A model generated the notes under the pieces. That model worked only from the letters and a program-made list of their open reading frames with translations. It did not search any database and was not told the DNA's origin. Made by a program: the position numbers and the translations under genes. This document shows, piece by piece, positions 15,530 through 33,201 of a DNA stretch of 64,000 nucleotides. Origin of the DNA: an uncultured virus (IMG/VR IMGVR_UViG_3300046002_006897) (lineage: Duplodnaviria > Heunggongvirae > Uroviricota > Caudoviricetes); the IMG/VR virus record IMGVR_UViG_3300046002_006897. The stretch is one strand, 5' to 3'. Each line of letters opens with the position of its first letter. Positions within the stretch are counted from its first letter, which is position 1.

Positions 15530-15570
15530 CTTTGAGTCGCAATATGGAAACATATATGCCGATTTTATAT

Positions 15571-15646: not shown

Positions 15647-15652
15647 TTTTAT

Positions 15653-16606: not shown

Positions 16607-16879
16607 TTTTTGTTGAGGAGGTTGGTCTAGAGGCAGCAATCCTATAATGAGTAGAGTCCGTACTCCAAGCTAGTAAAAGTGCAGCGATGAATTCTCGAAT
16701 TCTGCATTTCCCATTACCAACTATAATGGTTCGCGTGGAGGCAATTCAGACGCGAACCGATAAGAACTACGGAATTGACCTTAGCTCGGTGCCGAAAATG
16801 TAAGCGCAAATATAGTTGTTATATATTTGGCCGCGAAACGGTGTTAGCTCTTTTGGCGTAATAGCACACTCTTCAAAAA
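16607..16879 (+). ncRNA. Structured RNA containing a 23S rRNA H43/H44 (L11-binding domain)-like module
   Basis: AGGAGGTTGGTCTAGAGGCAGCAATCCTATAATGAGT ... GCGTAATAGCACACT, closed by a terminal helix. Confidence 0.75.
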
Positions 16880-16888
16880 TATTTAAAT

Positions 16889-16967
16889 GGCGATATCGTC
16901 TATGTTTGGAAAGGACAGGATATTCTCAATATTCAAAGGTCGGTTCGACTCCCGACTATCGCCACCA
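16889..16967 (+). tRNA. tRNA-Glu(CTC)
   Basis: Loop TTCTCAA, CCA. Confidence 0.85.
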
Positions 16968-16969
16968 TT

Positions 16970-18328
16970 TTATGTTTTCCATTTACGAATTAAGTTTTTC
17001 AACTTGATTCTGTGCTCGCGGATTTTTTGCTTACTGCGCAATCTGATATAATTAGCAACTTCCTCCGCGCCACCAAAAGTTAACATTTCAACTATATCGT
17101 TAATATCTTTTGGAATAAATTTTTCTTGGGTCTGTGGGTCGGCGAACATGTATGTTTGATTTGAAGAATTTCGATATGCTTGATATTTTTTCATCGCATT
17201 CCCTAACACACTTTCTAGATTGAAATCGGATAATCTCACCAAGTTTTCGTAACTAGAATCGTCCAATACACCGCGAACAATATTTGACATTGGTTTGCCG
17301 TAAGTTTTAATATTCACAACGTGTGTTATAGCGTTGGTGATTTGGTCGAGATAATCTCCGTCGTAACTTTTCAAGAACTTGGTCAAATCTTTAGAGAGGA
17401 ATACACCATTGTCTCTTCCATGATGAAAGATGCACCACCACGCTAAGTTTTTTCCCAGCGCATCGTAATCTTCGGTTCCTAGATATTCTTCTAGGTCGTC
17501 CTCTATACGACCGTCGTCTAGGATGTTATAATGTTCTGCTATTAGCGTAGACAGTTTAGGAACAAACTCGTCGCCATGATCTTTTACCCACTCTTCGTTT
17601 TTCTTTTCTTCCACTTCTTGCTGTCTGTCTGAAATATTGCTTTCATCGTCATCAAGGTATTCCGTTAATTTTTCCATTGCTTCTTCCGGCAATATTTCTG
17701 ATAAATATTCCCCCGGTCTAGACATGGTATGGTCCTGAGAATTATACAATGTCCAATCACGACTGTTCGCCCCGGACGGAGAGAGCAACGCCAATCGAGC
17801 CATTGGTTTTTCAGATTCTCGGTCATGTATAAGAATTACGGTGTTTTCAGAGTAGTAATCCTGCCAATAATCTTCGCTGCTTGAAATACACCAGTTGGTT
17901 TTTCCGGCTGCAAAATTTCCAACTGCATCTTGTGAGCGCGGACCGACAATTAAAAATCTGTCATCTTCGTAAATCAGTTCGGTGTCTGCGGCTAATTTTT
18001 CTCTGTTGCTAAGTTTCTTCGCGGCTTCGTCGGTGGCTCGGACAAACTCTTCATAAGTTTTGTACTTGTTGATGTCAATGCTTGATAGCTTGTTGAAGTG
18101 CACCTTAATTCTCTGTAACAAATCATTAGCGAACACTTTGTTTTCAATTTTGTCGGATACGGTGACGATCTTTCCAAGCCAGTCGAGATACTTCTTGTTG
18201 GCGGTAAAGTCGCCATCTATAAGTAAGTTCTGCATCCATAATGGGAGGTTTACGTATTTCTCTTGAAAGTCAGAAACTCGACTTTCCAGCAATAAATATG
18301 GCAATAAAGATGATAATTTGATGTGCAT
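16970..18328 (-). CDS. hypothetical protein (contains the WCIS motif seen in large-phage proteins)
   Basis: 452-aa ORF; TATATTTATA upstream on the minus strand. Confidence 0.75.
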   Translation of the reverse strand: MHIKLSSLLPYLLLESRVSDFQEKYVNLPLWMQNLLIDGDFTANKKYLDWLGKIVTVSDKIENKVFANDLLQRIKVHFNKLSSIDINKYKTYEEFVRATDEAAKKLSNREKLAADTELIYEDDRFLIVGPRSQDAVGNFAAGKTNWCISSSEDYWQDYYSENTVILIHDRESEKPMARLALLSPSGANSRDWTLYNSQDHTMSRPGEYLSEILPEEAMEKLTEYLDDDESNISDRQQEVEEKKNEEWVKDHGDEFVPKLSTLIAEHYNILDDGRIEDDLEEYLGTEDYDALGKNLAWWCIFHHGRDNGVFLSKDLTKFLKSYDGDYLDQITNAITHVVNIKTYGKPMSNIVRGVLDDSSYENLVRLSDFNLESVLGNAMKKYQAYRNSSNQTYMFADPQTQEKFIPKDINDIVEMLTFGGAEEVANYIRLRSKQKIREHRIKLKNLIRKWKT

Positions 18329-18392
18329 TAGTAATTATAAATATAATGCAGTGATTATAATAAACGATTTTACAGAATTTGATTTATAATAT

Positions 18393-18467
18393 GGTGTGGT
18401 AGAACAATGGTAGTTCAACGTCTTGATAAGGCGAAGGTTGTGGGTTCGACTCCCACCCGCACCACCA
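18393..18467 (+). tRNA. tRNA-Ile(GAT)
   Basis: Loop TTGATAA, CCA. Confidence 0.9.
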
Positions 18468-18471
18468 ATTT

Positions 18472-18547
18472 GAAGAAGTAGCTCAGAGAAAGAGCGCCGG
18501 TGTTTCAACGTCTGTGAGGTCGGTGGTTCAAGTCCACCCTTCTTCGA
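18472..18547 (+). pseudogene. tRNA-like element with disrupted anticodon arm and no CCA
   Basis: Perfect acceptor GAAGAAG/CTTCTTC, D- and T-arms present, anticodon stem poorly paired. Confidence 0.6.
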
Positions 18548-18555
18548 TATTTTAT

Positions 18556-18632
18556 GGGGTCGCATGTACTAAGGATAGCGACGGATACTTGCAATATCTG
18601 TGATGTGAGTTCGATTCTCACCGATTCCACCA
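18556..18632 (+). tRNA. tRNA-Ala(TGC)
   Basis: G3:U70, loop CTTGCAA, CCA. Confidence 0.9.
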
Positions 18633-18634
18633 AT

Positions 18635-20197
18635 TTAACTTGGATCATATCCAAACTCATGAAGACTATCGCCTGTAGTAAATAAATGCATAGCCGAAAC
18701 AGTCTTTGTTAAGATTTTATAATCTCCCATAAGAGTATTTCTGCCGTGACTAATAGCGTATCTTTTATTTATTGTCACCCAATCACCGGGATTGATTTTT
18801 AAACCTTTCAATTTCTTCGATTTGAGCGCGTCCATCTCAGCAAACAATTTTTCAAGCAAAGCGTCTTTGTTATATTTTAACTCGGGATATAAATCGGAAT
18901 ATTTACTGCCTACTGGTAAAAATCCAAATTTCATGATGTACCCGGCAACGGTTGATATATCTTTAATTTTATTATCCGTGTCTTTGTTTAAGTTTGGTAC
19001 TGCCCTGTATATTCTAACTTGCTTGTTGGGGTTTCCTCTTGCACTTTGTATTATAGATACGGTCTCAGCATCACTGTATTCAGTTGATCGATCCCCATAA
19101 TATTGTTCGGCCTTCGATGAATAAACATCGTCTGGATAAATTTTTGTTAAATCGTGCAATGGTGCTCCGCCATCTTTATCTGGCGCACGGTGTTGACCTT
19201 TATAATCTTCTTGTTCAGACAATTTTAATTGGTCACGCTGGTCGTTTGATATAGCGTTTTTACTTTTTAGTTTATCAAAGAACAACTTCACTCTTGGGTC
19301 GGATGATAATAAACTATCGGATGCTGCCTCTTCCATCCAGTGTTCTAATAAAGTTGTCAAATCCTCGCGGTTGACGGCGTTGTTAATCAAAATATTTTTG
19401 TCTTTTATATCACCCTTAAATCTCATTGGAACATTTGATCCCACTTTTTTATATCCAATTTTTTCTAATTGATTGGATATTTTTTCCGGAACTGCAAAAA
19501 TAGCCGGTGTGGATGAGTGTAGCAAATCCAATAGCATATCTATACCAGTTTTACCAGTCTCGGGTGCAAAATGCGAAACGGCAAATGTATCACCGATGAA
19601 TTGACCAACGAGATAATCTTTGGAGTTATATGGATTATAAATAGTCCCATGTCCGCTTTGTAAATGTGAAATTAAATCGGTAGGATTTATACCTGCACGA
19701 ACCGCGTATTTTTCGTAGTTATCTTGAATAGTATGTGCTTCTTCTTCACCTGTAACATCTCTAAAATTTGAAGATAGCCGAGTATCGGATTGCGGCAACT
19801 TAGTTACTGTATATGCCTCAGATACCTTACTTGTATTTATTTTTTCCGATTTTATTATTTTTATTTGCCGTGGAGAAAATACAAAACAGTCAAATTGACC
19901 ATCAGCGTCTTTGAGGATTACTCCATCAAATCCATTACCTTTAATCTGACCAAGACCAAGCTTGTCGTATTCATCCCACCCAGCAGGATTATTAATGGTG
20001 ACTTCGGCAGTAATTAGGTAACCTTTACCTTGTGCACCCGCTTCGTTTGACAATATTTTGTTTTTATCAGACGTAAACCATATAATACCTTGAGTAGTTT
20101 TTTTCAAGTCAAACTTTTTAAATTTTGAACCTGTTCCATGATACACAGTCAATGGTTTCGACTGAATCTCGTTAAGTAAATCTTTTAATTTAATCAT
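18635..20197 (-). CDS. Multidomain protein with an ADP-ribosyltransferase-like (ART-PolyVal-like) domain
   Basis: VYHGT..F..FD, GIIWFTS and GFDGVI at the N-terminus; IYRAVP..INPGDWVT..YA..HG at the C-terminus. Confidence 0.65.
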   Translation of the reverse strand: MIKLKDLLNEIQSKPLTVYHGTGSKFKKFDLKKTTQGIIWFTSDKNKILSNEAGAQGKGYLITAEVTINNPAGWDEYDKLGLGQIKGNGFDGVILKDADGQFDCFVFSPRQIKIIKSEKINTSKVSEAYTVTKLPQSDTRLSSNFRDVTGEEEAHTIQDNYEKYAVRAGINPTDLISHLQSGHGTIYNPYNSKDYLVGQFIGDTFAVSHFAPETGKTGIDMLLDLLHSSTPAIFAVPEKISNQLEKIGYKKVGSNVPMRFKGDIKDKNILINNAVNREDLTTLLEHWMEEAASDSLLSSDPRVKLFFDKLKSKNAISNDQRDQLKLSEQEDYKGQHRAPDKDGGAPLHDLTKIYPDDVYSSKAEQYYGDRSTEYSDAETVSIIQSARGNPNKQVRIYRAVPNLNKDTDNKIKDISTVAGYIMKFGFLPVGSKYSDLYPELKYNKDALLEKLFAEMDALKSKKLKGLKINPGDWVTINKRYAISHGRNTLMGDYKILTKTVSAMHLFTTGDSLHEFGYDPS

Positions 20198-20203
20198 GAT
20201 ATA

Positions 20204-20749
20204 TTATTCTTCGTAAGTTATATCAAATTGTCGATTTTGGTCCACTACTTCATCGAGCTTGCCGGACAGTGTTGGTTGGAGACTTGCTGATAATTTCTTT
20301 TTTAGGCCATCTTTTAAAGCTAACAGATGTTTGCAAAGTCCCGGACGATTTTCCGGATTTAACATATCTGCTGGCATTCCATTAGATTTATTCAAACTAT
20401 TGAATCCTAATGGACTTGCTCCTTTTTTATTGTTAGCGTATGCCCAACGAAATTTATAATCTGGACATCCACAATCAACTTCGCACATGAGTCTATCTGG
20501 GCGAGTAACTTCTTTAGATTTTGGAAATGTAATTCTACCTTTCCAAGATTTACCCGTGGTGTTATTATCTGGCGCACTTCTAAAAGAGAAATTCCAGTAT
20601 CTTTCATCTCTGTTAGACAGAACGGGCAATGTTTGTACTTTCATATTCTTCGCTCGGTTCTTTCTGGACGGCGTGGACGAATTGAATAATTGGTAAAAAC
20701 TCATTCTCTCGGTCAATAGGCTGCGAGCAAGGTTTGCTAGTGAAATCAT
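20204..20749 (-). CDS. SWIM zinc-finger protein
   Basis: CGCPD...CKH. Confidence 0.75.
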   Translation of the reverse strand: MISLANLARSLLTERMSFYQLFNSSTPSRKNRAKNMKVQTLPVLSNRDERYWNFSFRSAPDNNTTGKSWKGRITFPKSKEVTRPDRLMCEVDCGCPDYKFRWAYANNKKGASPLGFNSLNKSNGMPADMLNPENRPGLCKHLLALKDGLKKKLSASLQPTLSGKLDEVVDQNRQFDITYEE

Positions 20750-20791
20750 ATGTATAAATATAGGTTAGATGTTATAAAATGTAAAGATAAC

Positions 20792-20867
20792 GGGGAAATA
20801 GCTCAATTGGTAGAGCACCGCATTTGCAATGCGAAGGTTGTGGGTTCGAGCCCCATTTTCTCCACCA
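20792..20867 (+). tRNA. tRNA-Ala(TGC)
   Basis: Loop TTTGCAA, CCA. Confidence 0.95.
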
Positions 20868-20895
20868 TTTATAGTAAACAGTATGCGTGCTTATT

Positions 20896-21213
20896 ATGCA
20901 AAACATATACTATAATCCAAAAGAATGCGGTTTAGAAATTGTCGATGTACTTGACGACCCTCAAGACTACGCGTTTAATACTCTATTGATAGTTCGGGCG
21001 ACCGACACCAATCGAGTGTATTACGCAGCAAGTGCGGGGTGTTCTTGTCCCGTCCCGTTCGAAGAATATCATTATGCTTCGGCTGATGATAACGATTTGA
21101 ACGAGGTGACATATGAGACGTTAGACAGCTTCATTAATGTAGTGAATAATTTTCCTGTTTCCATTGATGAAAGAAAAGATGCTATCCGCAAGGTTGAAGC
21201 ACTATTAAAGTAA
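20896..21213 (+). CDS. hypothetical phage protein
   Basis: YY.P..GL and GCSCP.PFE motifs. Confidence 0.7.
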   Translation: MQNIYYNPKECGLEIVDVLDDPQDYAFNTLLIVRATDTNRVYYAASAGCSCPVPFEEYHYASADDNDLNEVTYETLDSFINVVNNFPVSIDERKDAIRKVEALLK

Positions 21214-21244
21214 ACATCGGAGTCGAGGGAGAAATCCCTTTTTT

Positions 21245-21320
21245 GGTCTTATAGCTCAATCGGTAGAGCAGGAAGCTTTTAACTTCTTGGTTCGGGGTTC
21301 GAGTCCCCGTGGGACCACCA
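21245..21320 (+). tRNA. tRNA-Lys(TTT)
   Basis: Loop CTTTTAA, CCA. Confidence 0.95.
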
Positions 21321-21372
21321 TTTACATTAAATATAATAAGTAAATTTAAAATTGAAGTATATATTTATATTT

Positions 21373-21834
21373 ATGAAAAAATCCGAATTAAAATCTTTGA
21401 TAAAAGAAGTAATACAAGAAATCGAGCTTAACCCTGAATATAGTGTGAATTCAGACGAACAGGTAAGAATTGCAATAAGACGCAGTTATAAACCCTTCCC
21501 AAAAGCGAAATTTTCCTCCCCCAACGAGGAATTATTTCAAAAATATCTTCGAGCCGCACAAGCTTGGGCTGCTCAAAATTTAGCGGATTCGAAAAACGGT
21601 GCATTGTTATCAAAGCAAGGAAAATTACACACGAGAATAAGACCAGACGCTAAAGATAGTGACCTAGTTTTACGGTTTGACGACGGATATGAAAATTTTG
21701 ATGAGTTTCTATTAGACTACGACCAAAAACAAATAAGTCAGCATGAATATATATGGATTTCGCCGCGACATATTGCAAAATACGTAATGGGAGAAGTGGC
21801 GGACAGAATCGTAATTCCGGGAGAAACAAAATAA
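21373..21834 (+). CDS. hypothetical protein with MKKSELKSLIKEVIQE leader
   Basis: ORF preceded by TATATTTATA. Confidence 0.7.
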   Translation: MKKSELKSLIKEVIQEIELNPEYSVNSDEQVRIAIRRSYKPFPKAKFSSPNEELFQKYLRAAQAWAAQNLADSKNGALLSKQGKLHTRIRPDAKDSDLVLRFDDGYENFDEFLLDYDQKQISQHEYIWISPRHIAKYVMGEVADRIVIPGETK

Positions 21835-21845
21835 TAAAATTTTAT

Positions 21846-21921
21846 GCTGGGGTAGCATAGTGGCTAATGCAGCGCGTTTACATCGCGCCTATCGGGGGTT
21901 CGAGTCCCTTCTCCAGTACCA
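21846..21921 (+). tRNA. tRNA-Val(TAC)
   Basis: Loop TTTACAT, CCA. Confidence 0.95.
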
Positions 21922-22058
21922 ATTTCAATATAAAAAACCAGTATAGCCCAAAGATAATTCAGCGGTCTGGGGTGATGCATCACTTGTCTGTTTGGGATAT
22001 TGAAACTAATTTAATGTGATGAGCCCTAGTTTTTGTATTTGGTATATATTTATATTAC

Positions 22059-22448
22059 ATGATAAAATTGAAAGACTTGATCGGAACACCGTTTGCAGTG
22101 TTTGTTTTAGCCAAAGCAAATGGTGGATATGCTGCTACAACTCGTGCAGCTGATCGCAATGAGCAAGGAAGAATTGGATTGCCCGGTGGAAAAGTTGATA
22201 TTGGCGAATCGCCAGTTGAAGCAGTAACAAGAGAAGCTAAAGAAGAAGGATGGGAAGTAAAAGTAACAAACACAACACCCATACACACACAATTGGTTGA
22301 TGGAAAACTTGTGCATTGGTATGCTGGAGAATCTGCCATAAAATTGAATAATTTCAAAGAAAAGGGAAGAATAACTCCCATAGTTGCAACTCGTGAACAG
22401 ATTTTATCTTCTGGTTATGGAAATGAAAATCTGTACAATCATATATAA
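22059..22448 (+). CDS. NUDIX hydrolase
   Basis: PGGKVDIGESPVEAVTREAKEEG Nudix box. Confidence 0.9.
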   Translation: MIKLKDLIGTPFAVFVLAKANGGYAATTRAADRNEQGRIGLPGGKVDIGESPVEAVTREAKEEGWEVKVTNTTPIHTQLVDGKLVHWYAGESAIKLNNFKEKGRITPIVATREQILSSGYGNENLYNHI

Positions 22449-22449
22449 T

Positions 22450-22850
22450 TTAGCAGTTACGACGTTCTGAAACAAACGATCCAGCCTACTGTTCCGCTGT
22501 AACCCGAGCAGTTGCATTTTTGGTAAACGTGAAAAGAAATAGTAAAGAATAGAACACGAGTCATCGTACTTGTGTCACACTAGGCTATCCATCTAGCTCC
22601 TTAATAGGAATAAATTTACAACCATCTTCTTTCAGTATAACAAGTGCTCAAAACTTGTTCGTTCATATGTTTTCGTAAAAGCATATCAACAGAAGCAGTG
22701 GATTGGTTCAATCGTTAGTTCTTTTGCGTAAAAAGACAATATTTGTCACTCAATGCCTCTTAACAATGCACAATTTTAAGTGAGTTTTACGGCAGTTACA
22801 GGGGTAGCCCCTTGGGTGGGAGGCGCACACCAAATCACGCCTATTCTATT
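22450..22850 (+). ncRNA. Candidate large structured RNA
   Basis: ORF-free, with several long-range complementarities. Confidence 0.5.
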
Positions 22851-22892
22851 TTTATTGACATTGCATGATATTTATGTAGTGTTATAGTTTAT

Positions 22893-22968
22893 CGGAGTGT
22901 AGCGTAACTTGGTAGCGCACTCGCTTTGGGAGCGAGCGGTCCGGGTTCAAATCCCGGCACTCCGACCA
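22893..22968 (+). tRNA. tRNA-Pro(TGG)
   Basis: Loop TTTGGGA, CCA. Confidence 0.95.
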
Positions 22969-22974
22969 TTTTAT

Positions 22975-23050
22975 GGCGTTTATAGTGTAGTGGTTCGCAC
23001 GGAAGTTTGTGAAACTTTCAGGACGATTTCGAATATCGTTAGACGCCCCA
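22975..23050 (+). tRNA. tRNA-His(GTG)
   Basis: G-1:C73, loop TTGTGAA. Confidence 0.9.
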
Positions 23051-23178
23051 ATTTGTAAGTTTTATAAGATGTAGCCAATGCTTCCAAGCGAGGATCATGT
23101 GCTGTAAGTTCTTACCTGTCGCAATGGTGCAAAATAGAAACATCGAGCATTAGAGTTGGTAGCTTACAAAAATTTTAT

Positions 23179-23264
23179 AGAGTGGTCGCATAATGGTATT
23201 GCAGAAGTCTCCAAAACTTCCGTTTTAAAAAACATTGTCGGTTCGAGTCCGACCCACTCTGCCA
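23179..23264 (+). tRNA. tRNA-Trp(CCA) with long variable arm
   Basis: Loop CTCCAAA, 16-nt variable region, GCCA. Confidence 0.85.
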
Positions 23265-23272
23265 ATTTTTAC

Positions 23273-23348
23273 GCCAATGTAGTCTAAAGAATAGGCACCA
23301 GTTTCCTAAACTGTTTATATGTAGGTTTGAGTCCTATCATTGGCACCA
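23273..23348 (+). tRNA. tRNA-Arg(CCT)
   Basis: Loop TTCCTAA, CCA. Confidence 0.85.
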
Positions 23349-23356
23349 ATTTATAT

Positions 23357-23447
23357 AGAAAGGTAGCCAAGTGGTTTACGGCACTACATTGGAAGTGTAG
23401 CGGGTTCTAAACAAGCCCCGCGAGTTCGAATCTCGCCCTTTCTGCCA
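23357..23447 (+). tRNA. tRNA-Ser(GGA)
   Basis: Loop TTGGAAG, long variable arm, GCCA. Confidence 0.9.
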
Positions 23448-23492
23448 TTTATATGTTGACACAAGACAAAAAATATCCAAGATAGAAACCAC

Positions 23493-23831
23493 ATGATAAA
23501 TAAAACCAAAAAATTCGAAATTGAGGGAGTTGATTGGAAAATCCAAGTAGAATTGGACTCATTGGTATACACGGACACGGCAACGAGACTATTTGTGGCA
23601 GGCGCGATGGCGATTGAACATATGAGTACCGGGTCCACAGGATGTAATCTAGGTGCAATCGTTTTGGTGACTGAAAAAGACGGAAAGAATATTACGTTCG
23701 GAGTGAATTCGTACATTTGCTTAAATCGTGTGGGAGACTATGAGTCTGCAAAAATTTTAAGAAAAAATTACAGGGATATGTCAGGCCAAGATTTGTCAGA
23801 AGATTTAAAAGGATATCACAAATGCAAATAA
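23493..23831 (+). CDS. hypothetical protein
   Basis: ORF following a TTGACA promoter. Confidence 0.65.
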   Translation: MINKTKKFEIEGVDWKIQVELDSLVYTDTATRLFVAGAMAIEHMSTGSTGCNLGAIVLVTEKDGKNITFGVNSYICLNRVGDYESAKILRKNYRDMSGQDLSEDLKGYHKCK

Positions 23832-23874
23832 ATTCCGCTATTTTTACTTATTATATATATATTTATAACAATAT

Positions 23875-24759
23875 ATGAGTATATTACAATCTACGTTTGA
23901 TAAGCATAAGAAGTTGATGTTGGAGAGTGTTGTACAAGATAGATTGCGTGATGAGGCGGCGCTTGAACAAAAAAAACAGCAACTGCTTGCGAGTGGATTA
24001 AGAGTCGTTCCAATGCAAGGTGGGGAAGACAAAAAATACTTTGCATATACATCGGGGAGATACATTGTGTTGATTGATATGGGAAATATAAAACTTCCAT
24101 TTTATTGTTCTTCCGGAGAAGGAGGAAAAGCAAATGTTCCTTCTGGAAAATGGTATCCGATTTTTGGAATAAGCAAAGCGGGTTGGCTCAACAAGGGCAC
24201 AGAAGAACAAATTAACAATTATTATGGAAGCAGTGCTGCAAAATCTGTGGCCAAGAAGTTAGACGAGGTATTGGGAGATATGCGAGAAATGTTTTCGATG
24301 AAACATTTCGTGGGTGTAGACAAGGTATTGCCTATTATAAATCAAGATTTGAATCCACCCGACCAACGCCCCACCCCAGAAAGATCAAAAGAATATATGG
24401 AAATATATAGAGCGAATGTTAGAAACGTTTTGCAGAAAATAGGAGGGAACGCGGGACCAGTTCCAATAAAAAATAAGTTAACATTAACACACAACGGTAA
24501 AAATGTTGTGGAAGCAAATATTTCAGCAAACATTGGCCGAGCAATCGTCCAAAAACACGGCGACGACGCCAAATATTTTAGTAGTGAACAATTTCAAATT
24601 CAAAAACAAAAAGATGATACGTGGAAATTGATTCATAACAAAGCTGCCACGAATATAACAACCATTGATGGTAAAGAAGTAACCGAGCCAACAACACTTG
24701 TCAAAGGAATGAAGATTGCGCTAGGAAAAACTGGCAAATTTCCAATGGAAGTTGGCTAA
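23875..24759 (+). CDS. Protein with C-terminal FHA-like domain
   Basis: IGR..S..QF.I...TN.T.IDG...L..G..I.LG. Confidence 0.65.
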   Translation: MSILQSTFDKHKKLMLESVVQDRLRDEAALEQKKQQLLASGLRVVPMQGGEDKKYFAYTSGRYIVLIDMGNIKLPFYCSSGEGGKANVPSGKWYPIFGISKAGWLNKGTEEQINNYYGSSAAKSVAKKLDEVLGDMREMFSMKHFVGVDKVLPIINQDLNPPDQRPTPERSKEYMEIYRANVRNVLQKIGGNAGPVPIKNKLTLTHNGKNVVEANISANIGRAIVQKHGDDAKYFSSEQFQIQKQKDDTWKLIHNKAATNITTIDGKEVTEPTTLVKGMKIALGKTGKFPMEVG

Positions 24760-24978
24760 TATAATTTTCTATAGTGACAAAAAGGGCGGCAGACTCTGAA
24801 TCTGTTGTTTGAAGCGTTGGGGTTGCTCCCAACTCAGTAAACGGCACTGAGGGTGGTTTAACCTAACCACGAAAGATGCTAAAGTGAGATAGCTGTGGGA
24901 CAGCTTGACTATAGAAAAATTTTTGATATAAATAGTAGTGGTTCATCGCTTTTGTCTTGATTCAATATATTTATTGAT

Positions 24979-25737
24979 ATGGAACAAAAAATTTGTGAAC
25001 TTGGGTGTGGTAAAATTGCTATTCATCAACTGAAAAGTGGGAAGTGGATTTGTGATACATCCGCAAACAAATGTGAAGTTATGCGAAAGAAAAATTCTGA
25101 CGCTACCCTTGGAATAGAAAAGCCTTGGATGAGAGGAGAAAACCACCCCAGACCGATGTTAGGAAAAAAATCTTGGAACTCAGGATTAACAAAGGAGACG
25201 AGTCCAATAGTTATGGCTCAGTCAAATAAAATGAAGGGGACAGTTTCAAAGTTTGGTGGCCGAGCATCAACCGCCGAAAAAGAAAAATTAAGAAAAGAGA
25301 ATATTTCTAAATCTATGAAAGGTGTTGGTGGGGGATTTAGAATGAAAAGTGGTAGAGGTAAAAAAGGTTGGTATAAAGGATATTTTTGTAGTAGTTCGTG
25401 GGAATTGGCGTGGGTCATTTACTCATTAGAGCATGGAGTAAAATTTGAGAGAAACAAAATTGGATTTCCATATGAATTTAATGGAAAACGGAAAAAATAT
25501 TATCCCGATTTTATTGTTGATAAAAATTATGTGGAGATAAAGGGATACGATTCTCCACAGTGGGAAGAGAAGAAAAAGCAGTTCAACAATAATTTGATTG
25601 TTCTTGGGAAAAATGAGATAAAACCATACATAGAATACACAGAAACAAAGTATGGAAAAGATTTTGTTAGGTTATATGAAGATGGAAAGGTGGCAGAGCG
25701 GTCTATTGCGGAAATCTTGAAAATTTCTAATCCTTAA
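24979..25737 (+). CDS. Putative homing endonuclease (NUMOD-like repeats plus PD-(D/E)xK/TnsA-like domain)
   Basis: WNSGLTKET, S.WE, YYPDF..YVEIKG. Confidence 0.75.
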   Translation: MEQKICELGCGKIAIHQLKSGKWICDTSANKCEVMRKKNSDATLGIEKPWMRGENHPRPMLGKKSWNSGLTKETSPIVMAQSNKMKGTVSKFGGRASTAEKEKLRKENISKSMKGVGGGFRMKSGRGKKGWYKGYFCSSSWELAWVIYSLEHGVKFERNKIGFPYEFNGKRKKYYPDFIVDKNYVEIKGYDSPQWEEKKKQFNNNLIVLGKNEIKPYIEYTETKYGKDFVRLYEDGKVAERSIAEILKISNP

Positions 25738-25773
25738 ACGGGTTCGTGGGTTCGATTCCCACCCTTTCCTCCA
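25684..25773 (+). tRNA. tRNA-Ser(TGA)
   Basis: Loop CTTGAAA, long variable arm, CCA. Confidence 0.9.
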
Positions 25774-25839
25774 TTTTATGGCGTCCACTTGAGGATGAAC
25801 CATAGAGTGCGGGTAGATGAATCGCACACGCCAATTTTC

Positions 25840-25915
25840 GCCGCCGAAGTTCATATGGGTGAACGTCTGTTTCGTAAATAGAATGTAGCTGGTTCGATTC
25901 CAGCCGGTGGCTCCA
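25840..25915 (+). tRNA. tRNA-Thr(CGT)
   Basis: Loop TTCGTAA, CCA. Confidence 0.9.
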
Positions 25916-25958
25916 TTTTACATAATATAGTTCATTGTATATTATATTTATTGGTAGT

Positions 25959-26630
25959 ATGAAAACCAATATTATAATAAACGGTCAGACATTCAACAAG
26001 TCTGATACATTCAATCCAAACACAGAAAATTTACAAACAGATGGATTGTCAGTTCTGTGTTTCAGTCAAAATGATAATTGTAAAGTAAACGACTGTATCA
26101 TAGATGGCGAAGATGCTCGTTGGGGAGGCAAAGCCTCATTGACATTCGATCTTGAATATACCAAATGTACTTTTAAAAATGGTACTGCGCGTGCCTTTGA
26201 CATGGTTCGTGGCGGCAATGTTACATTTACAGATTGTATATTTGAGAACAATGTCAGAAACAAAGTTAAATCTCAATATAGTTTAACAGAGTTGTGTGAT
26301 CTTGGAATCAAAGGTGGTGTGCATGATGTAACATTTCATAGTTGCGTGTTTAATGACATTTTGATTGGCGATTATAGTATTTACGATCAACGAGATAGAC
26401 CAAAAGCTCGTCGCTTTACTTTTATCAATTGTAAGAATATAGATGGCGGTCCAATCATTATTCGTGGCAGATATGTAGATAAAGATTCTATCAGTTTGAT
26501 TGGTACAAATGCAAAAATGTGGGTTTGGCCAACAATTTTTACTAAACTATATTGGATGTATAATCGCAAGTTTGGCGATACTCGCAAGCCAGATGGCTGG
26601 AATGTATATGATCCCAGAGAACTGATCTGA
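25959..26630 (+). CDS. hypothetical protein, beta-helix-like repeats
   Basis: Repeated V.F..C.F motifs. Confidence 0.6.
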   Translation: MKTNIIINGQTFNKSDTFNPNTENLQTDGLSVLCFSQNDNCKVNDCIIDGEDARWGGKASLTFDLEYTKCTFKNGTARAFDMVRGGNVTFTDCIFENNVRNKVKSQYSLTELCDLGIKGGVHDVTFHSCVFNDILIGDYSIYDQRDRPKARRFTFINCKNIDGGPIIIRGRYVDKDSISLIGTNAKMWVWPTIFTKLYWMYNRKFGDTRKPDGWNVYDPRELI

Positions 26631-27062
26631 TCAAGCGTCTTTGGAAAGTTCTCCGCGAGCAATCAAAATCTTTTTATTGGTTTGGTGAGCTTCTTGAACC
26701 AACTCTTTATTTTCACCAAGATAAGCCACGGCATAGTTGTTTTCAATTAGCCACTTATTTATATTTGTTCCATCGTCTAATATAAACTCTCCAAGAATAC
26801 GACCAAACTTGTCGTCGTTGTTATCATCCTTGGTGGTGTTTATTTTTTGATAGCTACCAATCGGTAGTTTTTCTGTTAATTTTTTCTTGGAAAGCATACC
26901 ACGAGTTTTTTCCTCTTTGTTGTTTGTTCTTGACTCTGGCGTATCTACGCCGGATAGCCTCACACGTTGATTGGATAATATTATATTAAATCCAAGGTCC
27001 AAGTCTATCTCAACGGTGTCGCCGTCGACGATTTTGTTTATTTTGCATTTATATTGATACAT
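26631..27062 (-). CDS. Thermonuclease (SNase) family nuclease
   Basis: VDGDT, RVRLSGVDTPE, DKFGRILG. Confidence 0.9.
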   Translation of the reverse strand: MYQYKCKINKIVDGDTVEIDLDLGFNIILSNQRVRLSGVDTPESRTNNKEEKTRGMLSKKKLTEKLPIGSYQKINTTKDDNNDDKFGRILGEFILDDGTNINKWLIENNYAVAYLGENKELVQEAHQTNKKILIARGELSKDA

Positions 27063-27086
27063 AGAGTATAATATATATCAATTCGC

Positions 27087-27160
27087 TGGGAAATGATGTA
27101 GTGGTAGCATATTTGTCTCTGAAACAAATCGCGTTGGTTCGATTCCAACTCTCCCATCCA
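27087..27160 (+). tRNA. tRNA-Gln(CTG)
   Basis: Loop CTCTGAA, CCA. Confidence 0.9.
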
Positions 27161-27276
27161 ATTATTATATCTTATAAAAGCTTATTATAAAAATTTTTGT
27201 CTTGTAAAAGTCATATATATCTGTTCTAATTGAACATATATCGTCCTTGAAAGAGGATGTAATTTGAAAAATAACT

Positions 27277-29211
27277 ATGAATAATAATAAAAATACAAGA
27301 AATAACTCGGTCTGGAACAAGCTTATTGTTTTGTTCTGCCTGTTTGCTACTGTTGCGTTTGGACTGCCGTCCATCGAAACAAGTAATTTACAAGCTACAC
27401 CGGGCGTAACGCTATCACAAGCCGGTACATCGCTAGTGGTCACATCACCAAATAAATCCGTTCTGACGTGGCAGAATTTTGGTAGTGGCACCGATACCAT
27501 CGCCAGCGGAGATAGTATAAATTATACGTTACCATCCTCCAATTCTTCGGTTTTAAATATAGTAACTGGCGGAAACAATACTACTATCAATGGAAGCATT
27601 TCTTCGAATGGAAATGTATACATTCTGAATCCGAACGGAATAATAATTGGAAGTAATGCTCGTATTGACACCAATGCAATTTATGCAAGTACTGCTGATG
27701 GTACATCAATTGGCTCTAACTATTTTCTAGCAAATGGAAAATTGCCAAGTCAAGATGGATTGGTTTTGGGCGGAAGCAGCATAACTGTTAAACCCGGCGC
27801 AACAATCACCGCCGTATCTAACAATATTTATTTGGCGTCCAATGGATTGGATTTGCAAGCGGGTTCAATCAATGGAAACTTGACAGTAAATGCAACTGGG
27901 ACTGTGGGTCTAAGCACACTCGGAACAACCTTTATCGCGGGAGATTTGACCGTAAATAATTCGTATGGAACAACAACACTTGCCACGCCCGGAAATACCT
28001 TGGCCGTGAGTGGAGTCGCAACCGTCAATACCGTTGCTGGAACTGTGATTAATACGGCAGGAAGTTCTTTGAATGCCCGCTCCGTCGTTATAAATGCTGG
28101 CATTGGCGAAATTTCGGTGGCAAAAGTGGTATCTTCTACTGTAACTGCCACCGGTAAAAATGTTTCCATTACATATGGACAAAATGCGCCGGTCACATTC
28201 GTCGGTTCTGCGGCAAATAACATTTCCGTAAATGCTCCGGGAGCACTGACACTCTCTGATGTATCTAATACCGGAACAGGCACAGCAACTTTTGTTTCGG
28301 GAGATAGATTATCTCTTGGAAAGATTCATCTCAATGGAACCGGCGGCGCATCCTTTACTGGAACTTCCGTGGTCGATACAATTGGTAATGCATTTGTATA
28401 TGGCGGAACCTCTTTCACTGCAAACTCCGGTGGAGATATTTCTATCACAAAGACCGGAAATAGCTTTGGACCAGTGAGTGTTACCACAACCGGTAATGCC
28501 ACCATCAACGAATCCGCGACACTTAATTTGAATGTAATCAATGTTGGAAATGTTCTCGCGTTGTCTAGCCTCGGAGAAAACATTTTTCAAACTTCGACTA
28601 CTGGCACAATCACAAATGCGTCGCCCGTTGTTTCTGCTGTTGGCAGCATTCAATTGCTTGCTCCAAGCAATACATTTAACACAATTGCTGTAAATGGAAC
28701 TGATGTATCGTTGGTCACCGCCAATGCATTAACACTTGATAATATTTCGGCCAACGGTCAATTGTCGATTACAAGCGGCGGAGCAATTTCCCAAAAAGTT
28801 GGAGCGACTGTTAAATCTTTCTCGGATACAACTTTCAATACGACGAATAACAACATTACCTTGGCTAACACCGGCAATAACTTCGGTGGATTGACTTTGA
28901 ATGCTGGCAATGGAAACATTTCCGTTGTTGAAAGTTCTACTATAAGACTTCTTGGTGTCGGTGGAAGTACCGTGGTATTGAAGAGTGGTGGAGATATCAT
29001 CAATTCCGGGGCAGGTGCAATTACCACTCGGACATTGAATCTTGAAGCTGGTGTGGGGATTGTCCTGACAAATGCGGCCACAATTTCTACTTCGTTGCTG
29101 TTCAAGGCCGTTGGTACTGTCGATTTGAGTGCTCTAAGTTTGGCAACAAATCTAAATAGCGTAGTTCCCGTGAATAATGGGGCTGGTACTTATACGCCCC
29201 CAACTCCTTAA
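27277..29211 (+). CDS. Filamentous haemagglutinin-like secreted protein (TPS N-terminal domain)
   Basis: Signal peptide, W..F, VLN.V, ING..SNG.VYILNPNGI, G/N/T-rich beta-helix repeats. Confidence 0.85.
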   Translation: MNNNKNTRNNSVWNKLIVLFCLFATVAFGLPSIETSNLQATPGVTLSQAGTSLVVTSPNKSVLTWQNFGSGTDTIASGDSINYTLPSSNSSVLNIVTGGNNTTINGSISSNGNVYILNPNGIIIGSNARIDTNAIYASTADGTSIGSNYFLANGKLPSQDGLVLGGSSITVKPGATITAVSNNIYLASNGLDLQAGSINGNLTVNATGTVGLSTLGTTFIAGDLTVNNSYGTTTLATPGNTLAVSGVATVNTVAGTVINTAGSSLNARSVVINAGIGEISVAKVVSSTVTATGKNVSITYGQNAPVTFVGSAANNISVNAPGALTLSDVSNTGTGTATFVSGDRLSLGKIHLNGTGGASFTGTSVVDTIGNAFVYGGTSFTANSGGDISITKTGNSFGPVSVTTTGNATINESATLNLNVINVGNVLALSSLGENIFQTSTTGTITNASPVVSAVGSIQLLAPSNTFNTIAVNGTDVSLVTANALTLDNISANGQLSITSGGAISQKVGATVKSFSDTTFNTTNNNITLANTGNNFGGLTLNAGNGNISVVESSTIRLLGVGGSTVVLKSGGDIINSGAGAITTRTLNLEAGVGIVLTNAATISTSLLFKAVGTVDLSALSLATNLNSVVPVNNGAGTYTPPTP

Positions 29212-29234
29212 TAATTAACAAGTTGTAAGACTTC

Positions 29235-29263
29235 AAGCCCAACCATAAAAAGGTTGGGCTTTT
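29235..29263 (+). terminator. Intrinsic terminator
   Basis: AAGCCCAACC...GGTTGGGCTTTT. Confidence 0.8.
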
Positions 29264-29300
29264 CATTTATAATTAATTTTGATATATATTTATTAAACAT

Positions 29301-29567
29301 ATGACAAAATCAGAACTTAAAGCATTAATCAAAGAAGTAATACAAGAAACTCAGTTTGCAGAAGAAGTGGAATTGAATCCAGAAAAGCAAGAACATATGA
29401 CAACGACCCAGTTGAATGGATTGAATCAAAAATCCGAAAAGATGCTAGAAATAATGCAATCTGAGAATATTAAACTTGAGCCTTGGATGATTGATTTAAT
29501 CAGCCAAGCATATCATAATATTGATGCGGTCGCGAACAAACTCATGTTCGGTCAGAAGAAAGATTGA
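29301..29567 (+). CDS. hypothetical protein with MTKSELKALIKEVIQE leader
   Basis: TATATTTAT upstream. Confidence 0.7.
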   Translation: MTKSELKALIKEVIQETQFAEEVELNPEKQEHMTTTQLNGLNQKSEKMLEIMQSENIKLEPWMIDLISQAYHNIDAVANKLMFGQKKD

Positions 29568-29732
29568 GAAAGTTATTGACTTTGGATAAAATTCTGGCAC
29601 TCTCTTACTCAAGAAAAGGGTGGAGTGAAAACGACTCCACGGAGGTAACGGGTAGGATTTCCTCCGAAGGACACGAACCGCAATATGTGCCTTCCTCTAG
29701 CTTATTTTGTTGATTGACAGTATTTAGATTTT

Positions 29733-29807
29733 CCTCTCGTAGCTTAATGGTAGAGCTGGCTCTTTATAGGGGCATGGTTGTGGGTTCGAGTCCTACCGGG
29801 AGGACCA
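29733..29807 (+). tRNA. tRNA-Ile(TAT)
   Basis: Loop TTTATAG, CCA. Confidence 0.85.
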
Positions 29808-30225
29808 TTTGTTCGTTCAGTTCAATGTACCGTGAAAAGCAATGGCCACAATGAGTCAACCGTGCTGAGTAATTTAGCGAGACGCAGGGTAAGGGAAACA
29901 CTCAAGATAACTTACTATCAGGTATTACGACAACCCCTAAGTTAAAAGGTGGAATGAACAAAAACTTTGAGAATAAAAAAGGCACTTGGCCCGATGATAA
30001 TTGTGACGCTTGCAACCTCGCTAGAGGGAAATTGGTAGGCAAGCTGCGTCAGTCCGAAAGGATTGGTCGTCTAACTACGAGGTAATGCTCATCTTAGATG
30101 TAGATGTACAAGCACATCGTATAATAGCAGATTTCAGCACAGCCAAGAGGTAGAATGTCTGGCGGTTGATAGACACCTACTGAAAGATCATCATCCTAGG
30201 TTAGCAACTAGGTATTCTCGAAAAC

Positions 30226-30596
30226 TTTCGAAGTAAGCGACCTTGCGCTGGTGACTATAGCTGAGTTAAGATGCCATCCATAATACGGTAATCAACCCGT
30301 TGAGACGAATGGATGTAAAATTCTCAAAAATTAAAATTCTATAATTACTAGAGGAAGTTCGCCCCTGCATAACACGGCGAGGCAGAGCAAACGCAGAGCA
30401 GAACACGTTGTTGGGTCTCGGGTCCAACCGAGATAGTTGACAATTGAGGACGCTCGCTCTTAGCGGCTCGTTATCGACCTCACGCAAGCAGCAACCTCAA
30501 AACGTCAAAGTGTGGGTGTTACACGTTGTAAAGGCAGGTAGAGGGCTTAGACAAATGCAAGGATAAAACAGAAGGGCGGCTACGGCTGCTTCGAAA
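30226..30596 (+). ncRNA. rnpB: RNase P RNA (divergent)
   Basis: P4 halves GAGGAAGTTCGCCC and AACAGAAGGGCGGCTA; P2 CCTTGC/GCAAGG; P1 TTTCGAAG/CTTCGAAA; AGACAAATG. Confidence 0.8.
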
Positions 30597-30610
30597 AACT
30601 TTAGTAAAAT

Positions 30611-30696
30611 GCAAGGGTAGGTAAGTGGCTAAAACAGGAAGTTTCATAAGCTTTCGCCGTAAGGCTTCGCGGGTTCGAATCCCGCCTCTTGCACCA
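30611..30696 (+). tRNA. tRNA with CAT anticodon and a long variable arm
   Basis: Loop TTCATAA, GCC-GTAA-GGC arm, CCA. Confidence 0.8.
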
Positions 30697-30705
30697 ACTT
30701 TAGAT

Positions 30706-30780
30706 GCCGACAAAACATAAATGGTGATGTGCGAACTTGGTAAGTTCGAAAAATGGGTCCGATTCCCATTGTTGGCTCCA
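30706..30780 (+). tRNA. tRNA-Thr(GGT)
   Basis: Loop TTGGTAA, CCA. Confidence 0.9.
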
Positions 30781-30786
30781 ACTTAT

Positions 30787-30863
30787 GCCGATGAAAGACA
30801 CTTGATTCTGTATGTCAGGTATTCGTCGTAACGTACCCAGTTCGATTCTGGGCATCGGCTCCA
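30787..30863 (+). pseudogene. tRNA-Thr-like element with aberrant D and anticodon arms
   Basis: Perfect GCCGATG/CATCGGC acceptor, T-arm and TCCA end; anticodon arm irregular. Confidence 0.6.
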
Positions 30864-30867
30864 ATTT

Positions 30868-31047
30868 ATGAAAATTGAAACAATCGAAGATATAGCAAAA
30901 GTTATAGTAAACCTTCCATCCGATTTAAGAGAGTACTTGATAAGTAATGTTACTCCGTCTACTTTTGTGTCATGTCTTCTTTTATTGGGGGCAGGAGGAA
31001 ATATAAAAGATTTCGCCTCCGCACTCAAAGAACATATGGTTATATGA
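30868..31047 (+). CDS. hypothetical 59-aa protein
   Basis: MKIETIED...; ATGA overlap with the next gene. Confidence 0.55.
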   Translation: MKIETIEDIAKVIVNLPSDLREYLISNVTPSTFVSCLLLLGAGGNIKDFASALKEHMVI

Positions 31048-31475
31048 AGAAGATACTAATAATGGGACTACCCGGCGCAGGAAAAACAACACTGGCCAAA
31101 GAATTGGCCAAGATGTTGAATGCAGTTCATTTCAACGCCGATGAAATTCGCCGAGAGGTGAACAAAGACCTGAAATTCGAGTTAGTTGACCGTATAGAAC
31201 ACGCTAGGCGCATGGGAGTGCTATGTGACATTGTCGTAAGAAGCGGACATTATGCAATTGCAGATTTTGTTTGTCCAACCAGAGAAACGCGAAAGGCATT
31301 CGGCGCGGACAAATCATTTATAATATGCATGGATAGAATTGAAGCTGGTAGGTACGAGGATACAAATAAATTGTTTGAATATCCAGCAATGTGCAATGTT
31401 CGAGTTGGAAATACAGGAACAGCCGAAGAATGGGTGAATAAAATTTATCATAAATTAGCAAGTGCAGGTCAGTGA
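31044..31475 (+). CDS. Adenylyl-sulfate kinase-like P-loop protein
   Basis: MGLPGAGKTT, NADEIR, DL.F...DR, FVCP. Confidence 0.75.
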   Translation: MKKILIMGLPGAGKTTLAKELAKMLNAVHFNADEIRREVNKDLKFELVDRIEHARRMGVLCDIVVRSGHYAIADFVCPTRETRKAFGADKSFIICMDRIEAGRYEDTNKLFEYPAMCNVRVGNTGTAEEWVNKIYHKLASAGQ

Positions 31476-31528
31476 TATATATAGTATTTTTATAAGAACC
31501 AGTCTGTTCTGTTATATTTATTATAACT

Positions 31529-32188
31529 ATGAGCAAACACACCACCATCAGTATAGAAGATTTGGAAAAAACTATTTTGTTTTTAGAAACTCCTCGCCCA
31601 ATATTGAAACGGGTGATAAAATTGTGTGAAGTCAGAGAATATCCAACCGGCGTATTCATCATAACGGAAAATGAATGCAGTCAGTTTATGTTTATACTAA
31701 TTTCAGGAACGGTTGACTTGATCAAGGGAAATAAATCAAAGAAGATAGCAACTCTTGGCGCTGGAAGTATAATAGGAGAAGGAACTTTGATTTCTGGTGC
31801 GCCTAGAAGTGCAACAATAGTAACTGCTTCACATGTAAAAGTTGCAATAATCAATAAAGATTCATTTGATAAAATGTTGACTATGCATCCTTCAATTCCT
31901 ATTGCATTGATGAAACTACATTCAAGTAGATGCAAGTCTGTTGTGGCAAATGTTAATATATTCAAGTCTTATGGGTTTATGGTTATTGCAGCGTTGTTTG
32001 GTTTGATGACATTGAAAAATTCACATAGTGTTATAGATATAGAGTCAATCAGTCCTGTGTTGAAGCAGTTGGCTGGATTGATACCAGACCAATATATGTC
32101 AGTTTGTGGACCAGCCGCTTTGCTTGCATTCGTAAAATCTCAGAAGATGGATATTAATAGTATACAAGCAAAATTAGAGAAAATTTGA
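31529..32188 (+). CDS. Cyclic-nucleotide-binding domain protein with C-terminal hydrophobic helices
   Basis: II.E.E, FILISG.V, G.IIGE..L....PRSATIV. Confidence 0.85.
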   Translation: MSKHTTISIEDLEKTILFLETPRPILKRVIKLCEVREYPTGVFIITENECSQFMFILISGTVDLIKGNKSKKIATLGAGSIIGEGTLISGAPRSATIVTASHVKVAIINKDSFDKMLTMHPSIPIALMKLHSSRCKSVVANVNIFKSYGFMVIAALFGLMTLKNSHSVIDIESISPVLKQLAGLIPDQYMSVCGPAALLAFVKSQKMDINSIQAKLEKI

Positions 32189-32247
32189 TGAAATTGTAGT
32201 TGACGAACAACAGAATGTGTGTATAGTCATTGTTGTTCTTTTGATAC

Positions 32248-32338
32248 GGCTGTGTGGCGGAATTGGCTATACGCACTTCGCTTAGAACGAAGCACCTATA
32301 AAAAAGGTATATGGGTTCGACTCCCTTCGCAGCCACCA
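32248..32338 (+). tRNA. tRNA-Leu(TAG)
   Basis: Loop CTTAGAA, long variable arm, CCA. Confidence 0.9.
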
Positions 32339-32752
32339 AATAAAAATAGTAATCGCGATGATCAAAGATGAATTTTGCTACAAATATACTTGACAGTATC
32401 AAATAATAATCTATAGTCATTCTTGTTCTTTTAAATACTTTTTTCTGGTCGTAAATACTTTGGGTCTCGTAAACCCATTTACTGGTTGGTATACAATGAC
32501 AAACACGTAGTAAATGTTGATTGAAATTCCTCTGCTTCCGAAGCGCGGGCCTGATATTATAGTTAGGTTAGAGCACTTGAGACATTTACTTGATTGTATA
32601 TCGAAGGGGAGCATAGCTGCTGTGCATACCGAGAGATTACCAACTCAACAAGCAGTCAGAAAAAAAATAAGTGCTGACATTGGGGATGACTCACCTGCTG
32701 ATGAACCAATGGCGCGGAGACGCAGGTCACTACCGCCAGCACTTCACTTTAC

Positions 32753-32838
32753 GGGCATGTGGATAAAGGAAACTGGTCACAACTATTTGTTTTAAAAACA
32801 AACACCCTCTGTGAGTTCGAATCTCACCATGCCCACCA
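32753..32838 (+). tRNA. tRNA-Leu(TAA), expanded D region and short variable loop
   Basis: Loop TTTAAAA, CCA. Confidence 0.75.
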
Positions 32839-32843
32839 ATTTT

Positions 32844-33017
32844 ATGGATACTCAAAACACATCAAACTATGATGGTGCAAAAATCGCAAAGCGTGAAGCA
32901 ATGCGTAAAGAACTAAAGCGAATGAAGCTGGAAAAGATGATTGCACTAAATCAAACAATCAGTGAGAAGGCTGATGTTATTGCACAGCGTTGGATTACTG
33001 AGTTGAAACAACAATAA
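32844..33017 (+). CDS. hypothetical small protein
   Basis: ORF between tRNAs. Confidence 0.55.
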   Translation: MDTQNTSNYDGAKIAKREAMRKELKRMKLEKMIALNQTISEKADVIAQRWITELKQQ

Positions 33018-33024
33018 TTTTTAT

Positions 33025-33110
33025 GGCAGTGTAGGAGAATTGGTATATCCACCCGACTCAAAATCGGAGGGCGCAAGCCATTGTCGGTTCGAGTCCGACC
33101 ACTGCTACCA
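33025..33110 (+). tRNA. tRNA-Leu(CAA)
   Basis: Loop CTCAAAA, variable arm, CCA. Confidence 0.9.
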
Positions 33111-33116
33111 ATTTAT

Positions 33117-33201
33117 GCGCATGTGGATGAGGGAAGCTGGCACAACCGTTTGACTTAAAATCAAATATCCTATATGGGTTCGAATCCCTTCGTGCGCACC
33201 A
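33117..33201 (+). tRNA. tRNA-Leu(TAA), expanded D region and short variable loop
   Basis: Loop CTTAAAA, CCA. Confidence 0.75.

Follow-up and report, generated by a model that had tools for sequence, protein, structure and literature searches.

The analysed stretch of DNA (64,000 nt, hereafter the window) carries a gene for an RNase P RNA (RPR) inside an array of tRNA genes on a fragment of a T4-like phage. That this RNA is a phage-encoded RPR is strongly supported by its helices and conserved positions, and comparison with other viral sequences identifies it as one member of a widespread phage family, not a one-off. The gene, its fold and its conservation define a reduced, phage-specific RPR class. 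With a probability of about 0.65 we propose that the RNA serves as a trans-acting 5′-maturation ribozyme for the phage pre-tRNAs and borrows the host protein RnpA. The positions of its parts are listed in Table 1.

Table 1. Parts of the phage RPR gene and the surrounding tRNA genes (window coordinates)
Feature	Position	Strand	Details and basis
Whole RPR gene, P1 to P1	30227..30595	+	369 nt; covariance-model match and helix reading
P1 5′ strand	30227..30239	+	pairs with 30583-30595, 8 + 3 bp, bulged A; helix reading
P2 5′ strand (30241-46) and single-G J2/3	30241..30247	+	P2 pairs with 30557-30562, 6/6; J2/3 as E. coli G19
P3, extended, 104 nt	30248..30351	+	single-hairpin fold; base 7/7 paired
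CR-I and P4 5′ strand	30351..30364	+	bulged U at 30359 = E. coli U69
P5 5′ strand	within 30365..30375	+	pairs with 30488-30491, 4/4
P6 5′ strand	30370-30375	+	pseudoknot with 30516-30521, 6/6
Reduced specificity domain	30377..30487	+	P7-like stem, internal loop, P12-like hairpin
J5/15 CAA	30492..30494	+	= E. coli C247, A248, A249; register alignment
P15 (4 bp), L15, P16 (3 bp), P17 (4 bp), L17	30495..30544	+	P15 4/4, P16 3/3, P17 4/4
J15/2 with CR-IV (30549-57), then P2 3′ strand	30545..30562	+	without P18
J2/4 without P19, CR-V, P4 3′ strand (30567-30582)	30563..30582	+	register alignment
tRNA array, 44 tRNAs	11485..33201	all +	ARAGORN; presumed substrates
Next gene, tRNA with CAT anticodon, 86-nt body	30611..30696	+	15 nt downstream of the RPR

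The source record is linear, comprises 74,405 bases and is ~34% complete. It encodes a family B DNA polymerase, a clamp loader, RNA ligases and a holin-like protein; together with the 44 tRNAs and a tmRNA these genes therefore indicate a T4-like large phage whose host is probably bacterial. The nearest DNA polymerase in GenBank is that of Microcystis phage Mel-JY01 (41% identical). Identical copies of the RPR are carried by two IMG/VR contigs, which show 0 differences across the 5 kb surrounding it. The tmRNA (41192-41583, + strand, 77.8 bits) contains an insertion in its tag-coding part and was missed by ARAGORN.

The catalytic domain is complete in the E. coli register: P1–P6, P15–P17, the bulged U, the A248 equivalent and the L15 GGU are all in place, and the register against E. 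coli rnpB is kept at J2/3, CR-I, J5/15, L15, CR-IV and CR-V. P4 forms 8/8 pairs, 3 + 5 around the bulged U, and six of the eight are unlike the E. coli pairs. The preliminary description had reported two P4 halves with a compensatory swap, and these are present (5′ half from 30351, 3′ half at 30567-30582), as are P1, P2, the P5-CAA element (30488-94) and CR-IV, all of which it had named; its P3 of about 100 nt was measured at 104 nt and folds as one hairpin. It had not recorded the P6 pseudoknot, P15–P17, the GGU of L15 (30537-30539, corresponding to E. coli 292-294) or the loss of P18 and P19. The 3′ strand of P6 is carried by L17. The window contains a single copy of the fully paired, two-part P4 motif, and of 200 shuffled windows one had such a motif; the folding energy of the whole molecule (z -1.32) corresponds to a stability that is not unusual.

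Helices P8–P11, P13, P14, P18 and P19 are absent from the window RPR. The interdigitated T-loops of canonical CR-II and CR-III, already described as unrecognisable in the specificity domain, are indeed missing, and a loop of 2 x 7-8 nt is found instead. The P7-like stem is paired at 5/6 positions with one C-A mismatch, the internal loop (30383-84 / 30470-77) has one base more than the family consensus, and the P12-like hairpin is long (30385-30469) with a base paired 4/4. That this odd domain is a conserved module of the family had likewise escaped the first reading.

A search with the Rfam RNase P models had been proposed as a check. At the gathering cut-off no RNase P model, RF00010 included, matched the window RPR; below it RF00373 matches the 3′ half (30429-30593) with 22.3 bits (E 2.7e-4; cut-off 84). 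A family model built from 20 cores, the window not among them, matches 30356-30584 with 69.7 bits (E 2.2e-18), the runner-up reaching 11.4. The identical copy L122 scores 91 bits on the family model with default filters; the E. coli RPR reaches only 12.8 bits on this model. BLAST of the window region returned no full-length relative among GenBank phages or plasmids, the best non-tRNA piece among the phages being 55 nt long (LR756511.1).

Five pattern scans of viral sequences (IMG/VR) yielded at least 501 loci, of which at least 163, with at least 91 distinct cores, remained once they had been filtered on P4, CR-IV and the altered base in P4. Scans with a single motif gave mostly chance matches: both P4 halves were found in 1 of 120 loci in one case, and 3 of 62 loci were RPRs in another, two of these being identical copies. 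P4 pairing was tested on 120 loci not selected on pairing (110 with a fixed 5′ anchor, 87 distinct). All four variable P4 positions are paired in 85 of the 87 distinct relatives, which show 34 different P4 types; 500 shuffles gave a mean of 11.3 and a maximum of 21. For the covariation analysis we aligned 30 of 88 trimmed RNAs, mostly the shortest, the window not being a row. A structure-free scan of this alignment returned pairs of P1, P2, P3, P4, P5, P6, P15 and P16 amid many chance pairs. In the drawn structure, which was derived from the same alignment on which pairing was counted, 90.1% of the cells are paired, compared with 63.2% after shuffling and 32-44% after sliding. Two-sided changes occur in 42 of 50 pairs, both pseudoknots among them; P5 and P6 covary, and the weakest helices are the P7-like and P12-like ones (76-77%). 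The family model recovers 94 of 96 sources and all 24 whole records given to it (149-735 kb), every one of them picked as a known carrier. Two carriers in GenBank, the cultured Stenotrophomonas phage DLP6 (KU682439.2), where the RPR lies in a tRNA cluster at about 105.77-106.02 kb, and the 735-kb phage LR756501.1, contain an unannotated family RPR.

The catalytic positions are near invariant. An alignment of 95 matches retains the U69 equivalent in 93, the A248 and A249 equivalents in 93 and 94, the CR-IV bases in 93-95 and the ACAG of CR-V in 95; G, G and U of L15 are kept in 70, 69 and 68, with 14-19 rows gapped there. In most members only a stem, a conserved loop and a hairpin of free length lie between P6 and P5. 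The loop reads G-R-A on its 5′ side and G-Y-U-N-N-N-A-C on its 3′ side (G 77, U 74, A 86, C 86 of the same 95 matches, 9 rows gapped). The shortest family RPRs measure ~190 nt, the stretch between the P5 strands going down to 40 nt in the shortest members, and P3 is usually a short hairpin in the relatives. Because a metagenome scan for close relatives gave a single locus, with an RPR that reads like L483, the long P3 and P12 extensions of the window RPR stand without covariation support. The U and the A of the loop, five positions apart, fit the T-loop consensus, so that the UNNNA loop may be one surviving T-loop. In canonical RPRs the corresponding module of the specificity domain stacks on tRNA G19:C56 (PMC12974513).

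We envisage that the RPR would be transcribed along with the tRNA array, then cut out, and that it would act in trans on the phage pre-tRNAs and probably on the pre-tmRNA too. The centre of P4 and the bulged U would bind catalytic metals, the L15 GGU would pair with the RCCA end of the tRNA, and A248 would cap the +1/+72 pair. Host RnpA would be borrowed, since no protein subunit gene accompanies the RPR. More tentatively, the UNNNA loop could, as a single T-loop, still stack on the tRNA elbow. The gain would likely lie in extra or host-independent tRNA maturation while dozens of phage tRNAs are made. A 5′-maturation ribozyme of the phage's own had been suggested beforehand; the RPR identity in that suggestion now has strong support, and the maturation role we infer from the invariant catalytic and substrate-binding positions. 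Isolated catalytic domains of the E. coli and P. furiosus RPRs cleave without a specificity domain, and P6 matters for this while P18 does not (PMC5839562), a pattern that fits the parts kept and lost in the phage RPR. Several points speak against this reading: hosts already have an RNase P, CR-II and CR-III are gone, the scores lie far below the Rfam cut-offs, and an inactive camelpox RNA sets a precedent (PMC3001073). T4 pre-tRNAs, too, are processed by host RNase P (PMC11143913). A broader reading, which we regard as possible and put forward with reserve, is that large phages carry a minimal RNase P class, its specificity domain consisting of one stem and a single T-loop, which would capture host RnpA and take over or redirect 5′ processing, so that the phage tRNA supply would survive host shut-off or defence.

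The presumed substrates of the window RPR are mostly canonical tRNAs. CCA is encoded by 42 of the 44 tRNAs and U stands at -1 in 35. The share of -1 U is weak support, because a share of ~60% is common among bacteria and A248 is likely to stack on, rather than pair with, position -1 (PMC10465520). A canonical T-loop is found in 35 of the 42 CCA-ending tRNAs; the proportion is the same for tRNAs near reduced RPRs (80 of 99) and for those near full type A RPRs of phages (59 of 75). Tuning of the enzyme to aberrant tRNAs thus finds no support. The CAT tRNA downstream is likely co-transcribed with the RPR and is a candidate substrate. Transcript data neither show nor exclude expression of the RPR, as they consist of assembled contigs: 17 RNA runs cover only small shares of the region, the RPR body (30294-30535) is uncovered in the four examined, and one contig from a relative reaches 30545-30588 with 6 differences at depth 4. 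A promoter scan stayed at chance level (4 found, 4.0 expected).

The RNA could also be a catalytic RPR whose main targets are not ordinary phage pre-tRNAs, its specificity having shifted or relaxed towards tRNA-like phage ncRNAs or host RNAs. The module that would read the tRNA elbow is remodelled across the whole family, the upstream cassette, whose end lies 5 nt before the RPR, has a terminal stem and a T-arm-like hairpin, and many non-tRNA substrates of RNase P are known (PMC4919922). Moreover, 25 of the 58 loci with enough flank have no tRNA within ~650 nt, which also counts against the maturation reading; in favour of that reading, the other 33 do have one, and all 104 nearby tRNAs share the strand of the RPR. 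We consider shifted targets unlikely, however, as the neighbouring tRNAs are mostly canonical, and equally so beside reduced and full RPRs, the CCA-binding GGU is retained and no target was identified.

A decoy role appears improbable; here the RNA would lack catalytic activity but bind host RnpA or pre-tRNA, and would thereby reduce or redirect the processing of tRNAs by the host. Such a use has been proposed for the camelpox virus RNA, the one viral RNA likened to RPR that our literature search turned up, which shows some structural similarity only and is inactive (PMC3001073), and loss of the specificity domain could cripple activity in the phage RNA as well. The phage RNA differs from the camelpox RNA in having every conserved catalytic region together with covariation. 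Its bulged U, CR-I, CR-V and A248 are near invariant amid drift elsewhere, the 44 tRNAs of the phage require 5′ maturation, and phage tRNA arrays also hold full type A RPRs.

Borrowing of the host protein was weighed against an enzyme that is free of it and acts in the cell either as RNA alone or together with a phage protein that has gone unrecognised. rnpA (PF00825) was not found in the 74-kb record, in line with the preliminary description, nor in any of the 25 carriers searched, which include 12 IMG/VR records at least 90% complete and two GenBank genomes (control 10/14); the Pop5 family was found in none of 20 carriers searched. No carrier searched thus has a known RNase P protein, and many ORFs around the RPR are of unknown function; a divergent phage RNase P protein could escape Pfam. 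On the other hand, a given protein family recurs beside the RPR at no more than 4 of the 91 loci, most of which have short flanks. At cellular Mg2+ levels bacterial RPRs depend on RnpA, and CR-IV and CR-V, the protein-contact region, are conserved in the phage RNAs. We therefore hold independence from host RnpA to be quite improbable. Least probable is that the family functions while the window copy is decaying: its AT-rich 104-nt P3, the extra specificity-loop base, the C-A mismatch in the P7-like stem and the 3-bp P16 might suggest so, but the core helices are all fully paired, the insertions are placed at the tips of helices, which are variable throughout the family, an 8-nt loop with the extra base is shared by the distant phage L168, and the family model gives the sequence its 91 bits.

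By descent and core fold the window RNA is best classed as an RNase P RNA that stands outside type A and type T as these are defined. With bacterial type A RPR (RF00010; E. coli M1 RNA) it shares the catalytic plan and register, the single-G J2/3, the 8-bp P4 with its bulged U, P5, the P6 pseudoknot, the CAA linker, the 4-bp P15, the L15 GGU, P16 and P17. Unlike type A it is viral, lacks P8–P11, P13, P14, P18 and P19, has a changed P4 base and carries a small loop in place of CR-II/III. In the archaeal type T RPR of Thermoproteaceae the catalytic domain is likewise retained, most of the specificity domain is lost, P18 is absent, and Rfam models missed the RNA (PMC3579882). However, according to the same source P2 of type T has 3 bp, its P15 is shortened and its P5/P15 linker has 2 nt, where the window RPR has 6 bp, 4 bp and 3 nt; the window RPR also keeps a P12-like hairpin and has no P8/P9, and its carriers are without an archaeal protein subunit. 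The likeness to type T is most likely convergent. DPANN archaeal RPRs (RF00373) have the changed P4 base, a near-identical CR-IV and no P18; the weak RF00373 match is explained by the P4 base and CR-IV, which are common to both. The DPANN sequences that we read differ in keeping canonical CR-II/III, in a longer J2/3 and in lacking P16/P17, those tested reach 15-44 bits on the phage-family model, and the phage tmRNA indicates a bacterial host. RPRs of CPR bacteria are also found only below Rfam thresholds and miss helices; they are cellular, mostly without P13/14/16/17 and often without the CCA-binding motif that the window RPR keeps, a comparison of descriptions (PMC8172020). Theta ribozymes of gut phages are phage ribozymes linked to tRNA maturation as well, but these are small and self-cleaving, act in cis on 3′ trailers and have an unrelated fold (PMC10879173).

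Reduction of the specificity domain is graded among the phage RPRs. The relative L409/L241 has the family P4 together with a complete type A specificity domain, which includes P8, P9, P10/11, P13, P14 and P18, and it passes RF00010 with 191 bits. From a scan for the canonical P4 we accepted 55 of 113 loci (45 distinct), some of which look like host fragments while many lie in tRNA arrays. RF00010 was passed by 7 of 10 IMG/VR loci picked from those with a canonical P4, and phage tRNA arrays thus also contain full type A RPRs. At L694 and L635 a reduced domain is found together with a canonical P4. The simplest reading, drawn from such features alone, is that phages captured a bacterial type A rnpB which was then reduced, perhaps more than once. 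An archaeal origin, raised by the RF00373 match and the DPANN look-alikes, was rejected on the basis of J2/3, P16/P17, P18 in the full-length relatives and the tmRNA.

A scan of GTDB with one narrow pattern returned 45 loci, 18 with paired P4: 3 of phage type, 11 archaeal, 3 from Mycoplasmataceae and 1 spurious. The phage-type match L502 lies on a 546-kb contig with a T4-like capsid gene in a Bacteriovoracaceae MAG; this is a jumbo phage contig binned into that MAG. For the second match capsid genes are found in the same MAG on other contigs, and the third lies on a 3-kb contig. At least one of the three phage-type loci from this pattern is thus on a phage contig, and a cellular home for the family, which had been considered, appears unlikely. 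Five near-identical, GC-rich canonical type A RPRs without a tRNA nearby (L643, L683, L696, L719, L730) were seen among the viral records; these may be host fragments or mark an integration site beside rnpB. Microcystis phage MaAM05 (MW495066.1; locus L733, 1462-1861) contains an unannotated full type A RPR (251.8 bits) that stands among host-like genes outside any tRNA array and may be host DNA in the assembly.

Among the papers listed in searches of the open literature, none reports an RPR encoded by a phage. RNase P is not mentioned in the papers on DLP6 (PMC5349666), huge phages (PMC7162821) and phage group II introns (PMC12350094) or in a 2026 jumbo-phage review (PMC13282480), and a 2026 paper on RNase P evolution (PMC12974513) does not mention phages. 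In their accessible parts, a 2024 review describes only host processing of phage tRNAs (PMC11143913) and PMC6582537 deals with host rnpB. An earlier passing mention of a phage RPR is plausible, because the full-length phage RPRs pass Rfam; it is less likely that the reduced class was noticed before. RPR is regarded as a cellular gene, and a widespread phage class would add 5′ tRNA maturation to the translation functions encoded by phages. If the minimal-class reading is true, these RNAs would represent a viral RNase P with catalytic activity and a naturally minimal form of the enzyme. The dozens of natural, strongly covarying minimal RPRs allow a test of how much specificity domain the enzyme needs, and since DLP6 is cultured, expression and function are directly testable. 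The presence of an RPR serves as a completeness check for cellular genomes (PMC8172020); phage contigs binned into MAGs can mislead such rnpB-based checks.

Further observations concern the surroundings of the RPR. The cassette directly upstream (29966-30222, + strand; 10-bp terminal stem, fold z -2.47) had no match in an Rfam search and is a candidate RNase P substrate. Contigs from 4/4 RNA-library runs (four studies) cover it fully or partly with 3-6 differences; one contains a back-joint (circular or tandem), and in another the upstream tRNA is followed immediately by the cassette. Between tRNA-Ile and this cassette lies a second one (29809-29961, + strand), the ends of which are complementary; it gives only a chance-level RAGATH-32 match (E 8.2) and is missing from the contig of one relative. 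The CAT tRNA and a tRNA with a CCA anticodon (23179-23264, + strand) both have 86-nt bodies, which suggests a long variable arm, their amino-acid identity being uncertain. A tRNA-like gene with a TCA anticodon (18471-18547, + strand) does not encode CCA and is possibly an opal suppressor or a pseudogene. A 520-aa ORF within the tRNA array (18635-20197, - strand) contains an ART-PolyVal domain and a ParB-like part. In the phage of locus L168 a weak manA RNA match (L168 2748-3012; 24.7 bits vs 55.2) follows directly downstream of the RPR. The 488-kb record G006 (locus L433) carries two RPR copies ~330 nt apart on the - strand (L433 220-352 and 686-890), the second with a different P4.
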